Part shown: positions 28,611 to 63,760 of the stretch, in pieces
How positions within the stretch are numbered: the stretch's first letter is position 1
Layout of the letters: each line of letters begins with the position of its first letter
Assembly (NCBI GenBank): GCA_034226945.1
Contig: CP120463.1
Coordinates: forward strand, 124,001 to 188,000
Direction of reading: 5' to 3'
DNA length: 64,000 bases
Source of the DNA: Picochlorum sp. SENEW3
Taxonomy: Eukaryota
Made by a program: the position numbers and the translations under genes
Notes under the pieces: model-generated
Told to the model about the DNA's origin: nothing
Database searches by the model: none
The model's input: the letters and a program-made list of their open reading frames with translations, nothing else

Positions 28611-28683
28611 CACCGAATCAGGGGCTCGAACCCTGGACCACCAGGTTAAGAGCCTGGCGCTCTACCGACTGAGCTAATTCGGC
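28611..28683 (-). tRNA. tRNA-Lys(CTT)
   Basis: GCCGAATTAGCTCAGTCGGTAGAGC-G-CCAGG CT CTT AA CCTGG-TGGTC-CAGGGTTCGAGCCCCTG-ATTCGGTG, followed by a T8 Pol III terminator. Confidence 0.97.
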
Positions 28684-45381: not shown

Positions 45382-45453
45382 GGGCGTATAGTCTAGTGGT
45401 ATGATACTTGCTTAGGGTGCAAGAGGTCTCGAGTTCGATTCTCGATTCGCCCC
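45382..45453 (+). tRNA. tRNA-Pro(AGG)
   Basis: GGGCGTATAGTCTAGTGGTATGATA-CTTGC TT AGG GT GCAAG-AGGTC-TCGAGTTCGATTCTCGA-TTCGCCCC. Confidence 0.95.
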
Positions 45454-58464: not shown

Positions 58465-58561
58465 TACTTTCAAATCAAGATAATAATTCAATCATCATTT
58501 GGCTCGTGGAGTGTAAATAGACGACGCATTCTTGCTCAAAGTTGTTTCAGTAGTCTAGACA

Positions 58562-60392
58562 ATGAGAGTCGGAACTCGATGGCCCCACTTATGCAGTCGT
58601 ATTGAGCATCGGTCCCCATCGAAACATTTAAGAACCATTAAGCGTCAATACAGGCCCCCTAAATCAAGAATATGTGCCCTCGATACGAATGCTCTCATCG
58701 GCACGGGGATCTTTTTCGCTCCGGGAGCGGCGATTCTCGGCTATGCCTTCGTCAAGGGGAAAGGAAATGTCAAGGATGGTCTCAGTAGGTTGTTGACAGA
58801 AGTAAGCCAAGGATACTTTCAGCCCTCCGTCGGCGGGTTGAACATACCGGTTGCCGAGGGAGAGCTGTCAGACCTGGCAGGAGATGAACCACTATTCAAA
58901 GCCCTTTACAAGTGGTTCATCGAGAGCGGTGGTGTTTTCAAACTCTCCTTTGGTCCTAAAGCATTCATAGTTGTTTCAGACCCCCAAGTTGTGAAGCATT
59001 TGCTGAAAGATAATGCATACAACTACGATAAAGGAGTCCTGGCAGAGATCTTAGAACCAATCATGGGGAAAGGTTTGATTCCTGCTGATTTGGAGACGTG
59101 GAAAACAAGGCGCAGACAGATTGTTCCGGCCTTCCATAAGGCGTACTTGGAGAATTGCATTGCAATGTTTGGGTCGTGCGCAGAGAAGGTTGTTGAAAGG
59201 CTCGAGAAGGCTGCTGAGAGTTCCAAGTCACTCAACATGGAGGAAGAGTTTTTGAATTTAGGTTTGGATATTATTGGTATTGGTGTATTCAATTATGACT
59301 TTGGAAGTATTAATAACCAAAGCCCAGTGATACAGGCAGTCTATGGGGTTTTGAAGGAAGCAGAGCACAGGTCAACGTTTTACATTCCTTACTGGAACAT
59401 TCCAATATCCAAATATATTGTGCCAAGACAAATTAAGTTTCAGAAAGATATCAGGGTCATCAATGACTGTCTTGATGATTTGATTGACAGGGCAAAGTCC
59501 TCTAGATGTGTAGATGATATTGAGGCTCTTCAAGCAAGGGACTACTCTAAAGTGCAGGATGCGTCATTATTGAGATTTTTAGTCGATATGAGGGATGCGG
59601 ATTTGGACCAAAAGCAGCTACGAGATGATTTGATGACAATGTTGATTGCTGGCCATGAGACCACCGCAGCTGTCCTCACATGGACGCTCTACCTCCTAGC
59701 CACACACCCAGAGGTACAAGATAAGATTGTTAAAGAAATCAGCGGCATTGGTCCTAAACCAGGTGAGTTTTCTCGTTCATGTGCATATCAGCTCTCCCTG
59801 AAATTCTAATATACAGCATTCTGGGTTGACTGCAGGTCTGGAAGACATTGCAAAAGTCCCATACCTACGAAATGTGGTGGCAGAGTCTCTCCGTCTGTAC
59901 CCACAGCCTCCTATTCTGATTCGAAGAGCCCTTGACGATGATGTGCTTCCGTCAGGCTTGAACGGAGACCCAAATGGATATCCGATAGGGAAAGGTGCTG
60001 ATTTGTTCATTTCTGTGTGGAATCTCCACCGATCCCCATACCTGTGGAAAGATCCTGACGCATTTCGGCCAGAGAGATTTACTGAAAGATACACAAACCC
60101 AGATTTTACAGAGTGGGAAGGGTATGATCCCGAGAAACAAGGGTCATCTCTGTACCCAAATGAAGTGGCCTCAGACTTTGCCTTTCTTCCGTTCGGTGGT
60201 GGAATTCGCAAGTGCGTGGGAGATCAGTTTGCACTCACAGAGGCTACCGTGACGCTCATCATGATACTCTCTAGGTTCTCATTTGAACTCGCAACAAGCC
60301 CAAATGAGGTTGGCATGGCCACTGGTGCCACCATTCACACAGCAAATGGTTTACATTGTTTTGTTAAGAAAAGAAACACAGCAAACATCTAA
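58562..60392 (+). CDS. CYP97B: Cytochrome P450 CYP97B
   Basis: Intron 59763-59835. [40 protein letters not shown] and heme motif [10 protein letters not shown]. Confidence 0.93.
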
Positions 60393-60395
60393 TTC

Positions 60396-60854
60396 TCAAA
60401 GTCCCTTGTAAAAAGCCTCTAAAAATGGGCTCATACCCGTCTCTTTGTGTACTGTATCCTTGGCAGGATTCTTCACATACTGAGACACCAAATGATGCCG
60501 TTGCTTGTGGTTCATCAAGATCATTTCTAACTCCTCTCGCCCCTTGTATATCAAAATGTCTATCGCCGATGGATCTCTTACCTGAGAGTTCTTCCTGATC
60601 ATATCAGATACATTCCTTCTCATCTCAGCCATCGTTGTCAACTCCTCTAGCTTGTACTGTCTCATGATTGTTGGAAGGCAACGGCCAACCTGCAACACAC
60701 AACCATGCCAATCGAACCGCACCCAACAAAATCATCCACTTCAAGATACACCTACCTCCCTGAAGAATTCAAGGCTCTTTACAGACGCTCCCTGACTCAC
60801 AGCGTGAGCCACCCGAGAACCGAGTTCAACATTCTTCTTTGCCAGCGCTGACAT
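60396..60854 (-). CDS. NDUFA6: Complex I subunit B14/NDUFA6 (LYR family)
   Basis: Exons 60756-60854 and 60396-60689. FFREVGRCLP..YKL, DPSAIDILIYKG, HKQRHH and SPFLEAFY. Confidence 0.88.
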
Positions 60855-61178
60855 GATATTATTACAACAATATCATTTAAATTGCACGACTGCATAGTGA
60901 ATTGAACGTGGTTGGACTGAGGAATGAAATCCCTAGCACGTCAGCCTTAATTAAGGCGCGAGAGCTCTCGAATCCAGGCTCTTGCCACTTGGCCCCGGAT
61001 CCGGGAATGGGCATTGCAAAAACTCTCTTTGCAATGGATATTCCCTATCGATAGCAATTATGAAAAACATGTGATTAATATATTGGGGATTGAAGGTGTG
61101 TTTTGAACTTGATGTGCTCGATTCTTTTTTTCTGCATGCCGCTTTTTGAATGCGGCCCAGCGAAGGGCCCCTGTATAT

Positions 61179-61248
61179 CCCGATGATGGTACACATTAAT
61201 CTTTGAGAACGGAATACACAATGTTGATATTATAGCATATCCTGAGGG
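61179..61248 (+). ncRNA. Box C/D snoRNA guiding 18S Cm38 (snoR66-like)
   Basis: CCC/GGG stem, C box ATGATGG, guide TTAATCTTTGAGA (61196-61208) antisense to 18S UCUCAAAGAUUAA, D' CGGA, C' ATGTTGA, D CTGA. The D+5 rule gives C38. Confidence 0.85.
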
Positions 61249-61584
61249 TTTGGGTAGAAGGCCATACGTCAGTATATTCTCCGTGCGGATCCCTGTTTTC
61301 CAATGAGGGAAAAACCGTCCCAAACCAGCTGACAAGATGAACGATTGCCGTGTATCGCTTCTGTATACGTTTGGTATACAGTAGATGCGCTGCAATTATA
61401 TATTGTAACGCCTATACGCCTTCTGACTGACGTTTTGAATGTGGGTCTGTAGGGCTCTTTGAGGCTGCTGCTGTAGGAGTGAGTCAGAGGTATCCTCGAG
61501 ACGAAAGGAGGTTTACTCTTGTTGGCAGCATTCTGATCATGTTCAGGGTGAGTAGTATTGATACGTGTAGTTCTGTCGCTTTGT

Positions 61585-61665
61585 GAGAGGATGAAGATTG
61601 GATAGTTTCACACATCCTGATGTTCAAGATGATGAAACCATATCGCTGCGTTCTTTCTGACTCTC
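61585..61665 (+). ncRNA. Box C/D snoRNA guiding 5.8S Am43 (plant snoR9-like)
   Basis: GAGAG/CTCTC stem, C ATGAAGA, D' CTGA, C' ATGATGA, guide TCGCTGCGTTCTT antisense to 5.8S AAGAACGCAGCGA, D CTGA. D+5 gives A43 (yeast numbering). Confidence 0.9.
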
Positions 61666-61793
61666 GCAAATGACAGTGTTGTTGTATGCGAGCATATGAA
61701 GAAGAAATCAAAAACAAAATCTTAGGACACCTTCAGAGGCATGAATACAATGCCAATGAGACGACAATTTCTGCTGATGCTGGCTGTTTGTGG

Positions 61794-61886
61794 GAAACTC
61801 ACTGATGTGAAAAAATAACTTTCGTTCTACTGAAGTCGACACGACGCTGTAGAAGAAATTATTTGGAGACCTGAACTGAGAGTTTC
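61794..61886 (+). ncRNA. Box C/D snoRNA guiding 18S Am974 (snR54/U59-like) with a second LSU guide
   Basis: GAAACTC/GAGTTTC stem and variant C box CTGATGT. Guide AACTTTCGTTCT before D' CTGA. Second guide TTGGAGACCTGA before D CTGA. Confidence 0.85.
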
Positions 61887-62038
61887 ATTGGTCACAGCGA
61901 ATTCTAGCGTGCTATGTCTAAACTTTTTTTGAATGCGGTGCAGGGGCATTCATTTTTTTTGTTTTGGATACGTGCTGCTGCATGTACAGCAAGTGGGTAC
62001 GTAAGCAGACATCTATCTGATTATACAAAAAAGACAAG

Positions 62039-62116
62039 GCCGGTGAAGATATTCCATCCATAATTGAATCACCTGATCACGGGATGAATCTTTAACATGC
62101 ACCACTATCTGATGGC
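62039..62116 (+). ncRNA. Box C/D snoRNA guiding 18S Um1269 (U33/snR55-like)
   Basis: GCC/GGC stem, C GTGAAGA, D' CTGA, C' GGATGA, guide CATGCACCACTA before D CTGA. D+5 gives U1269 (yeast numbering). Confidence 0.88.
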
Positions 62117-62197
62117 TTTGTGCTAGTATTGCACGTTCGTTCATAACCTGTGGCTGAGTGCAGGCTCTTTTCAACGAATGAATATATTGCAAGGTAA

Positions 62198-62442
62198 GGG
62201 CGCAGTGCGAAGGGCCACTTCGGCGTATCCTTAATTGTTATGATTAGGGTGAGAATGCTGGGTGAAAGTCCCCGGGCGACCAGGCAGAGAGTGCCATCCC
62301 GAGAGGGAAAGACCCACTCCTGCCGATCACATGTGATCGGCGGTGTGGCAGTTCGCCATAGTTACAGTTATGTGGCCAGCAATATTATGCCATTGGTATA
62401 ATATTGTGAACAGAACGGGGCTTATTCTTGCACTGACGTCCC
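62198..62442 (+). ncRNA. RNase MRP RNA
   Basis: P4 halves GAAAGTCCCC (62264-62273) and AGAACGGGGCTTA (62412-62424). MRP-diagnostic P8 GGCA-GAGAG-TGCC with GARAR loop, P9 TCCC-GAGA-GGGA, and P1 GGGCGCAGTGCGA/TTGCACTGACGTCC. Confidence 0.93.
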
Positions 62443-62552
62443 CCCTCTTTTTTATGTACAGGTTCCTGGGACCATGACATATCATGCAACAAATAAATGG
62501 TGCGCTCTTTTGTAGTTTGTGTGCACGAGATGCTATTTTGGTAGGGACATTA

Positions 62553-62631
62553 CGGTATGATGATAGAACATTACCACAGACCTGTTCTGAGATATGTAAT
62601 GCTGAAATGGTTTCATGCACCACTCTGACCG
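62553..62631 (+). ncRNA. Dual-guide box C/D snoRNA for 18S Gm1428 (U25/snR56-like) and Gm1271 (U32/snR40-like)
   Basis: CGG/CCG stem and C box ATGATGA. Guide CACAGACCTGTT with D' CTGA, C' ATGCTGA, guide CATGCACCAC with D CTGA. Confidence 0.92.
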
Positions 62632-62821
62632 ATTCGAGTCCACAAATATCAACAGGTCTCTCGTAGTTTGACAGAGTTGATGCATTTTGTCATCATACAA
62701 CATGCTACTGCAGATTGAATGAAGCAAGCGATAATAACAATAATTACTGTTATTCCCATATACTGTATTGATTATATATTTTTTACATTCACAACAAATA
62801 GTTGTCTACTCTAATACATAG

Positions 62822-63760
62822 TTACTCTTCTTCAGCGACATCTCCAACGATTGGCTCAGCTGGTCTCTCAATCACTTCGCTAACCTCGGCGGAATAATCA
62901 CCGTGTACTTCCATGAGCTTGTTGAGATCAAACTTTGGAGCTCTCAGGAGCTTCACCTTGCGGACAAAGACATTCTGAAGAGGATAAATTCCTTGGCAAG
63001 CCTTCTCAATTTCTTTACCAATAGCTTCTGGGATAAACTTTCCTACCAATTCCTTAAGATCACAAGAAGTGGCTTCTCTAGTCATGATTTCAACCATCTT
63101 GGCACGGATCTGACGGATCTGAGAACTGCGGGCATACGCAGTCTTCTTTACCTGACCCTGGCGCTTCTTTGTGAAGCCAATGCAGAACATGCGAAGATAA
63201 TAGTTATCGGTGGTCTTAACATCGACGTGAGCCTCGATCAAAGTCTGCCACTTGCGGACAAGAGAGCGGAGCTTGTCTGTGGTGAGGTCCATTCCATAGA
63301 AGTGAGTCAGGCAGTTGCGGCCCTGCACGTCTTCTACACGAAGCTTGACATTACGGTAGGCATCAGCCTCATTCTTCTGCAAATCTGCAAGGGATACATT
63401 GATGACTCTTCCCTTGAGCCCATCGGAGGCAATCTTAGTACCCTGAGTACGAGTCACCAAGGTCTTTCCGATGTTCTTCACGTTGAAGATTGTTGGTGCC
63501 TTAATATCATACCAATCCTTCTTAGCGAATGGATCCTGACTGCATACGTATTCAATAGAGTACAAGTCAGATGATGGTTCGAAAACGTCAATGGCGGATT
63601 CCGCCGACGCCCAGACTGGCGACAACGAATATCCCCCAAACTCCGATTTGGATCACACCAATCCATCGTTCATTGTTCAATCATTCTAAAAAGAAACGTA
63701 CGCCTTCTTCTTTCCTCCCTTCTTTCCCTTGGACAAACGTTTATTCTTTCCCACAGCCAT
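62822..63760 (-). CDS. RPS3A: 40S ribosomal protein S3a (eS1)
   Basis: Exon 63702-63760 ([19 protein letters not shown]) plus 62822-63539 ([22 protein letters not shown]). Confidence 0.98.

Follow-up and report, generated by a model that had tools for sequence, protein, structure and literature searches.

An RNase MRP RNA within a spliced intron of a non-coding host gene for snoRNAs in the green alga Picochlorum sp. SENEW3

Introduction

The closest described counterpart of the RNA considered in this report is the RNase P RNA of insects and crustaceans which, like the RNase MRP RNA described here, belongs to the P/MRP family, lacks recognised signals for RNA polymerase III (Pol III) and lies in an intron of a gene transcribed by RNA polymerase II (Pol II) (PMC4287351, PMC6797745). 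The intronic RNase P RNA of Drosophila needs splicing, Ldbr, Rat1/Xrn2 and the exosome for its maturation, during which it is protected by Pop1, Rpp20, Rpp25 and Pop4 (PMC6797745). This switch to an intron has been described as exclusive to the RNase P of arthropods; for MRP RNA, Pol III signals were reported in all 26 insect genes surveyed and Pol III transcription in all animals examined (PMC4287351). Here we describe an MRP RNA located in an intron of a small nucleolar RNA (snoRNA) host gene in a 64,000-nucleotide (nt) stretch of the genome of Picochlorum sp. SENEW3 (assembly GCA_034226945.1, contig CP120463.1, positions 124,001 to 188,000 of the forward strand). This whole stretch is referred to as the window, and all positions are given in its coordinates.

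The algal locus differs from the arthropod one in cargo and in host, as it carries MRP rather than RNase P RNA and does so in a non-coding snoRNA host gene rather than a protein-coding gene. The proportions differ as well: in a Drosophila reporter the RNase P RNA (RPR) accounts for 353 nt of a 701-nt intron and has long flanks, whereas the algal MRP RNA fills 89-91% of an intron of 268 nt. An intronic MRP RNA, as found here, has been mentioned in a different phylum, in the red alga Cyanidioschyzon merolae, where the 23 stable RNAs encoded in introns include one with the annotation RNase MRP RNA, next to 11 C/D snoRNAs, and its discussion is put off (bioRxiv 10.1101/2025.12.01.691491, December 2025). 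Full-text literature searches returned no description of intronic MRP in green algae, in agreement with an initial annotation of the window that knew of none, and no description of a snoRNA host gene that also carries MRP RNA was found in literature searches.

Results

Identification of the MRP RNA and its intron

The RNA at 62200-62438 on the forward strand is an RNase MRP RNA. In an Rfam scan of the window it matched RF00030 with 104.6 bits against a gathering score of 50 (E 3e-28), in an alignment that ran the full length of the model (positions 1-266 of 266). Folding extended helix P1 by three pairs, 62198-62200 with 62439-62441. The Rfam alignment placed GAAAGUCCCCGG (CR-I type), the 3' GGGGCUUAY region and the GARAR loop of P8 with high posterior probability, the last as a GAGAG loop within 62283-62295, and the columns of these three elements were invariant across 14 lineages (element names partly after PMC4287351). 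RNAalifold, applied to 14 MRP introns, gave 42 consensus pairs, 26 of which showed compensatory change on both sides, including pairs of P1 and P2. Two strain differences in the P3 stem (62231 T>C and 62233 A>G) kept the pairing, and in two related lineages base 62200 is an A, which turns its G-U pair with 62439 into an A-U pair. A longer helix, in which the donor region would pair with the C/T block, was considered and dropped, as past the three added P1 pairs the minimum-energy fold contained only a 3-bp AGG/CCU contact with little variation.

The initial annotation had proposed that this RNA almost exactly fills a spliceosomal intron, and the Rfam match agrees: MRP makes up 239-244 of the 268 nt of an intron that proved to be the fourth of its gene. 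Its principal features are as follows.

62194-62461, forward strand: intron 4, the MRP intron; GT..AG, 268 nt; joint in RNA runs X3 and X12; 94% identical to the related metagenome locus L006
62433-62437, forward strand: candidate branch point CTGAC, inside the 3' strand of P1; A62436 lies 25 nt before the AG
62439-62453, forward strand: conserved block on the 3' side (GT, C6, T, C, T-run); pyrimidine tract that may double as a T-run of Pol III type

The donor reads CAAG/GTAAGG, the slash marking the splice site, with its GT at 62194-62195 and a gap of 4-6 nt to P1. The acceptor reads TACAG/G, with its AG at 62460-62461, and is preceded by a C6-T-C-T6 tract at 62440-62453. These signals, together with CTGAC in the 3' strand of P1, were all located where the initial annotation had placed them. 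A62436 is a bulged base in the Rfam alignment of P1, and CTGAC occurs at the matching place in 10 of 14 aligned lineages; motif, spacing and conservation make A62436 a candidate branch point. As this candidate sits in P1, and as in other lineages the donor too is paired within P1, the competition between P1 folding and use of the splice signals that had been suggested earlier is plausible. The 14-nt block after P1 (GT, C6, T, C/T, Ts) is conserved more strictly than a pyrimidine tract seems to require, and the block at 62439-62453 may have a second role as a 3'-end site, a protein-binding site or a Pol III-like stop.

RNA evidence for removal of the MRP intron

Nineteen public sequencing runs covered 61000-62800, three of them recorded as RNA. 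Four runs (X1, X3, X10 and X12), all consisting of assembled contigs, were aligned to 60900-62900 at 90% likeness. The initial annotation had predicted a junction between 62193 and 62462, and a GT..AG joint 62193^62462, as placed after the tool's correction of the cut, which skips 268 nt, was present in contigs of two of the four runs, X3 (depth 280) and X12 (depth 15.4). X12 is recorded as an oligo-dT metatranscriptome, and X3 was called RNA by the tool's guess. Additionally, an X12 contig with a loose end at 62195 continues with letters from 62464 onward. In X1, which the tool rated as probably DNA, eight collinear contigs covered all 30 bins and contained no joint. A GT..AG junction that is found in RNA contigs and is absent from the probable-DNA run is the mark of a spliceosomal intron, and intron 4 is excised in RNA at the predicted sites.

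In the same runs, three of the other introns of the gene were supported by joints and one by loose ends. X3 also contained an unspliced contig at 62166-62489, spanning exon 4, intron 4 and exon 5. The depths of the spliced and unspliced X3 contigs (280 and 272.5) were not used as a measure, since each is one figure for a whole contig.

Conservation of the splice signals in close relatives

A scan of metagenome contigs with a pattern built from two conserved MRP stretches yielded 72 loci, ten of which were collinear with the window by blastn. L006 was 79.5% identical over 61000-62716; in L056, L009, L039 and six near-identical loci, matches were confined to the snoRNAs and MRP, whose order was kept. 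The MRP region of the window and the ten loci, representing five lineages, was aligned with MAFFT. Directly before P1, AG/GTA[AC]GG was invariant in all 11 aligned sequences, and CTGAC, GT-C6-T and the T-run were invariant in the ten that reach that block. Beyond the T-run, 7-20 variable bases are followed by YAG in the relatives. The 80 nt upstream of the donor were unalignable among the relatives, the donor itself excepted, and contained no TATA or upstream sequence element (USE) shared among the 11 aligned sequences. GT, candidate branch point with pyrimidine tract, and AG, whose conservation in related algae the initial annotation had named as a check, are kept in five lineages despite otherwise unalignable flanks.

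Compared with L006, the introns of the gene were 74-94% identical, the exons 29-67%, the snoRNAs 93-98% and MRP 95%. GT or AG was kept at nine of ten splice sites in this alignment, and at the tenth, which is poorly aligned, the GT is still visible. Better conservation of introns than of exons is the hallmark of non-coding snoRNA host genes.

Promoter and terminator motifs

Three green-algal USE motifs (PMC8287931), the land-plant USE core and TATAWAW gave no match on the forward strand of 61900-62200. The earlier remark that no recognisable USE or TATA promoter precedes MRP thus holds for these motifs and this interval; the USE motifs come from other organisms, the USE of the alga may differ, and the window contains no small nuclear RNA (snRNA) gene. 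The USE plus TATA arrangement of a type-3 Pol III gene was accordingly not found upstream of MRP. An ATATATT at 62183-62189 (-17 to -11) is not conserved in L006. The T6 at 62448-62453, 10 nt after P1, has the form of a T-run terminator and equally that of a 3' splice-site pyrimidine tract, and T-runs also stand before the acceptors of introns 2 (T7) and 1 (T4), which carry only snoRNAs.

The snoRNA host gene and its surroundings

The MRP intron belongs to a spliced non-coding gene of Pol II type at about 61035-62800 on the forward strand, with six short exons and five introns. Introns 1, 3 and 5 contain one C/D snoRNA each and intron 2 contains three, so that the cargo amounts to six snoRNAs in introns 1, 2, 3 and 5 and MRP in intron 4. 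The initial annotation was borne out in placing MRP in a single intron, but its picture of an isolated intron was too narrow, as MRP occupies intron 4 of a multi-intron snoRNA host. The same-strand C/D snoRNAs that it had noted on either side of MRP are the one at 62036-62118, 82 nt upstream of it, and the one at 62553-62630, 115 nt downstream. The parts of the gene other than intron 4, all on the forward strand, are listed here.

61035-61095, forward strand: exon 1, 5' end approximate; X12 record 12 covers 61038-61093 and joins 61453; X3 depth at 61034-61100
61096-61452, forward strand: intron 1, GT..AG, 357 nt; joint in X12, same junction in X3 with a strain variant
61177-61250, forward strand: C/D snoRNA in intron 1, SNORD96/snoR66-like; Rfam 29.3 and 27.4 bits, below gathering, E ~0.015; 95% identical in L006, snoR66 match at the same relative place in L056
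61453-61547, forward strand: exon 2, bounded by joints and loose ends; 29% identical to L006
61548-61943, forward strand: intron 2, GT..AG, 396 nt; loose ends only, in X3 and X12, where contigs stop at 61548 and continue at 61944
61583-61668, forward strand: C/D snoRNA, first of three in intron 2, limits set by eye; C, D', C' and D boxes and terminal stem; weak Rfam match only; part from 61630 matched by blastn in nine relatives
61688-61784, forward strand: C/D snoRNA in intron 2, snoR31/Z110/Z27-like; Rfam 44.0 bits against gathering 45, E 2.7e-4; 97% identical in L006
61795-61885, forward strand: C/D snoRNA snoZ159/U59 in intron 2; Rfam 53.9 bits against gathering 39; same place in L006, L009, L036, L039, L019, L037 and L056
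61944-61996, forward strand: exon 3, bounded by loose ends and a joint; 34% identical to L006
61997-62163, forward strand: intron 3, GT..AG, 167 nt; joints in X3 and X12
62036-62118, forward strand: C/D snoRNA in intron 3, SNORD33/Z195-like; Rfam 36.4 bits, E 6.1e-4; guide with AUGCACCAC beside the D box; 98% identical in L006; same guide on the same side of MRP in other lineages
62164-62193, forward strand: exon 4, 30 nt, between two joints; 51% identical to L006, with a 17-column gap
62462-62499, forward strand: exon 5, bounded by joints
62500-62713, forward strand: intron 5, GT..AG, 214 nt; joint in X3 only; the X12 contig (record 17) retains the intron
62553-62630, forward strand: C/D snoRNA in intron 5, snR56-like; Rfam 37 bits, E 0.015; second guide with AUGCACCAC; 93% identical in L006, same position in relatives
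62714-62798, forward strand: exon 6, 3' end approximate; X12 record 17 extends to 62798

The joined exons amount to about 364 nt, in which the longest open reading frame starting with ATG encodes 35 amino acids. With snoRNA-bearing introns, no meaningful open reading frame and exons less conserved than introns, the host gene is non-coding. Two of the snoRNAs of intron 2, at 61688-61784 and 61795-61885, are only 10 nt apart and share their intron with a third; this spacing and the presence of three snoRNAs in one intron imply that their release needs cuts within the intron besides splicing.

A repeated sequence, TTTTGAATGYGG, was observed three times within the host gene (61144-61155, 61433-61444 and 61927-61938; 0.03 copies expected), always on the forward strand, with two of the copies 8-9 nt ahead of the intron 1 and intron 2 acceptors. 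It was rejected as a signal, since it is not conserved in L006, and probably stems from an internal duplication.

The remaining genes noted in the window are the following.

58559-60392, forward strand: CYP97B-type P450, by homology search
60396-60860, reverse strand: divergently transcribed gene with an ATG near 60856; an upstream region of about 180 bp is common to it and the host gene
62822-63652, reverse strand: convergent eS1-like gene, open frame starting at 62822
28611-28683, reverse strand: tRNA gene, by Rfam scan
45382-45453, forward strand: tRNA gene, by Rfam scan

The best named relatives of the CYP97B-type protein are from green algae (e.g., Parachlorella, 69% identity), followed by land plants, which fits a green alga of core-chlorophyte type; the protein atlas gave nothing but generic P450 clusters. 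The convergent gene is presumably that of ribosomal protein eS1, as read from its C-terminus.

MRP loci in other lineages

The wider collection of metagenome loci was examined for similar flanks. Clustering of 57 MRP copies with adequate flanks at an identity of at least 96% gave 28 groups. Rfam confirmed MRP in 20 of 20 and 10 of 11 representative loci, and the one without MRP (L061) was dropped. The flank test set comprised the window and 27 representatives, with the MRP start of L030, L038 and L052 moved up to the 5' strand of P1. AGGT[AG], with its GT 3-6 nt before the start of MRP, was found in 17 of the 28 lineage representatives, against a background of 224 occurrences in 113,842 positions, or 0.023 expected per locus (binomial P 3e-21, which is uncorrected for relatedness and so overstates independence).

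MRP has an AG/GT 3-6 nt ahead of P1 and, 7-66 nt beyond P1, a pyrimidine tract with an AG in L032, L022, L066, L069, L031 and L043, and the same bracketing was seen in L017, L062, L072, L001, L030 and L052. Splice-like flanks were not seen at L070, L015, L029, L011, L040, L065, L021 and L068. Outside the clade of the window, the lineages with bracketed MRP are mostly GC-rich, and their flanks are known from DNA sequence alone. In 13 of the 14 lineages for which an acceptor was set, the predicted intron measures 255-291 nt (355 nt in L072). RNAduplex paired P1 from the first base of the intron in 8 of 15 lineages examined; in L032, L022, L066 and L069, where P1 likewise begins at base 1, the predicted 3' splice site is only 9-11 nt past P1, and a G-C to A-U exchange at intron base 3 separates L032 from L069. 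No run of four Ts follows within 40 nt downstream in 10 of the 17 donor-flanked lineages. The arrangement of MRP as an intron is thus probably widely distributed. The initial annotation was supported in deriving the MRP of this alga from splicing, and the arrangement is not peculiar to the alga, as the same flanks occur in many metagenome MRP lineages.

A C/D snoRNA guide with AUGCACCAC beside the D box was found on the MRP strand in 13 of 29 loci and on the opposite strand in none, and SNORD33-like matches upstream of MRP occur also in L001 and L043. As a separate observation, the two snoRNAs that flank MRP in the window are different C/D snoRNAs with this common guide, and the same holds for L006, L056, L009, L036, L039, L043, L038 and others.

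Some loci contain tandem MRP copies, two or three on one strand and each with GT..AG-like flanks (L030:1372-2840, L069:1347-2528, L051 and L045). Their spacers of about 200 nt are less conserved than the MRP units (82% identity between the L069 spacers), which suggests host genes with several MRP introns. Eight flank translations from L032, L022 and L017 contained no Pfam family. Frames free of stops across the putative junctions exist in other lineages, those of L069 being uninformative in GC-rich DNA.

Discussion

The RNA joint and the conserved splice signals support the proposal that MRP in this alga is made by splicing and trimming, and we consider it likely that mature MRP derives from the excised intron 4 of a Pol II-type snoRNA host. 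In the route envisaged, the spliceosome would remove intron 4 (62194-62461), a debranching enzyme would open the lariat, and exonucleases working 5'-3' and 3'-5' would trim a 5' overhang of 4-6 nt and a 3' tail of about 20 nt until stopped by helix P1 and bound Pop-type proteins. The product would be an uncapped MRP RNA with a 5' monophosphate, whose output would keep pace with that of the snoRNAs from the shared transcript. A course through splicing, debranching, Rat1/Xrn2 and the exosome has been demonstrated for Drosophila RNase P RNA, and we propose the like for algal MRP; both the excised intron as source of mature MRP and the enzymes involved would follow that example.

MRP might instead be freed from the unspliced host transcript by endonucleolytic cuts and trimming, in the manner of plant polycistronic snoRNAs, with splicing as a parallel fate. 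With three snoRNAs in intron 2, two of them separated by 10 nt, cutting between RNAs within a precursor must occur in this organism, and the X3 contig at 62166-62489 indicates that unspliced RNA, or contaminating DNA, is present in that run. However, donor and acceptor stand at a fixed and very short distance from P1 in every relative, and in 8 of 15 lineages the first base of the intron is also the first of P1. Such a fit between P1 and the splice sites is expected if splicing sets the ends of the RNA and is unneeded for endonucleolytic release, and the alignment of relatives has no conserved stem or cleavage motif in the flanks of MRP besides the splice signals. We regard this route as unlikely. 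It is more doubtful still that MRP is an independent Pol III (or snRNA-type Pol II) unit nested in the intron and running from about 62198 to the T6. The T6 lies where a terminator would, 10 nt past P1, with its T-run kept in the clade of the window; the ATATATT at -17 to -11 is A/T-rich; and Pol III makes the MRP RNA of land plants and animals, as it has been suggested to do in O. tauri. Against this, no USE-like motif or TATAWAW occurs within 300 nt upstream, and ATATATT is nearer to P1 than the plant type-3 TATA, which lies at about -30, and is not conserved in L006. A nested promoter would have to fit into the 30-nt exon 4 and the intron before it, where the 80 nt upstream are unalignable among relatives apart from the donor. 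The terminator argument is weakened as well, as 10 of 17 donor-flanked lineages have no T4 within 40 nt and the snoRNA-only introns 1 (T4) and 2 (T7) have T-runs before their acceptors.

It is also conceivable, though highly improbable, that the intron contains a conserved paralogue or relic and that the working MRP comes from another locus. The search for MRP covered the window, which leaves room for a second, free-standing gene and weighs against our interpretation as well. The intronic copy, however, scores over the full RF00030 model and is 95% identical to L006 where the exons reach 29-67%; strain differences keep the P3 pairing, helices covary across lineages, and the MRP of each related contig sits at the same type of locus.

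Several further observations count against derivation of MRP from the intron. The contigs give no ends, strand or amount of mature MRP, and we infer the relation of precursor to product. The status of X3 as RNA is a guess of the tool, though its GT..AG joints favour RNA, and X10, which is recorded as RNA, contains no joint and only three low-depth contigs over intronic parts. The sides of the joint are only 22-26 letters long at 90% likeness, and the tool warns of such joints in metagenomes; here exon 4, which has another joint at its other end, measures 30 nt and leaves no room for a longer side. A T-run of at least four is kept in the clade of the window and looks like a Pol III terminator. 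TATA[AT]A at -45 to -15 was rejected as a discriminator, as it occurred in none of 28 MRP loci, those lacking a donor included. In other organisms, MRP genes are transcribed by Pol III in land plants (PMC8287931) and in animals (PMC4287351), and the MRP RNA of Ostreococcus tauri, which is intergenic, uncapped and terminated by a T-stretch, was for that reason called a Pol III transcript (PMC7671301).

The Ostreococcus MRP sequence printed in the supplement ends in ...CTGAC, as in the window, and the inference of Pol III rests on the missing cap and the T-stretch (PMC7671301), both of which are equally expected for an RNA derived from an intron. Type-3 Pol III genes for MRP resemble the algal locus in encoding the same RNA family and in having a T-run after the 3' end, but in the alga USE and TATA were not found and the flanks are splice sites in use. 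The host gene also has a likeness among green algae, as intronic snoRNA clusters are described in O. tauri (PMC7671301), which the three-snoRNA intron 2 resembles. What is new here is a probably intron-derived MRP in a green-algal snoRNA host; what was known is the intron-derived RNase P RNA of insects.

In vertebrates, hosts of the UHG/GAS5 type have short and poorly conserved exons without open reading frames and carry functional RNAs in their introns, like the algal host. Linkage of MRP to a snoRNA is also seen in S. cerevisiae, where NME1, which encodes MRP RNA, adjoins SNR66; the two are on the same strand, as in the alga, but MRP there lies beside the snoRNA and is not intronic. Mirtrons, which are pre-miRNA hairpins whose ends are set by splicing, offer a further comparison. 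They likewise are structured RNAs filling almost a whole intron, and in 8 of 15 MRP lineages the terminal helix begins at intron base 1. MRP differs from them in being a ribozyme RNA of about 240 nt instead of a 60-nt hairpin, in having a pyrimidine tail of 6-40 nt to trim and in having no link to the miRNA pathway.

This comparison leads to a broader and more tentative proposal, whose chances we put a little short of even: that across much of the green-algal lineage MRP is a whole spliceosomal intron (an 'MRP-tron') without a promoter of its own. The cut at the 5' splice site followed by debranching would then create the first base of P1, the branch adenosine would be the bulged A of P1 or lie in the conserved CUUAY just upstream, only a short pyrimidine tail would need trimming, and P1 would close only after release by the spliceosome. 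If this were true, assembly of MRP would depend on splicing and the debranching enzyme and would be coupled to the snoRNA output of the host, some lineages would have several tandem MRP introns per host, and the assignment of Ostreococcus MRP to Pol III in the literature would have to be looked at again.

For annotation, the locus argues for keeping MRP and RNase P candidates that lack Pol III signals. The argument for Pol III from a missing cap and a T-stretch, as applied to small algae, deserves re-reading, and the distribution of intronic MRP merits a dedicated survey. If maturation from the intron is confirmed, the P/MRP family would have made the switch from Pol III to a Pol II intron more than once, and the alga would be a natural example of a 240-nt ribozyme RNA with ends set by splicing. 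The supply of MRP and of snoRNAs would then be tied together in a single ribosome-biogenesis transcript.

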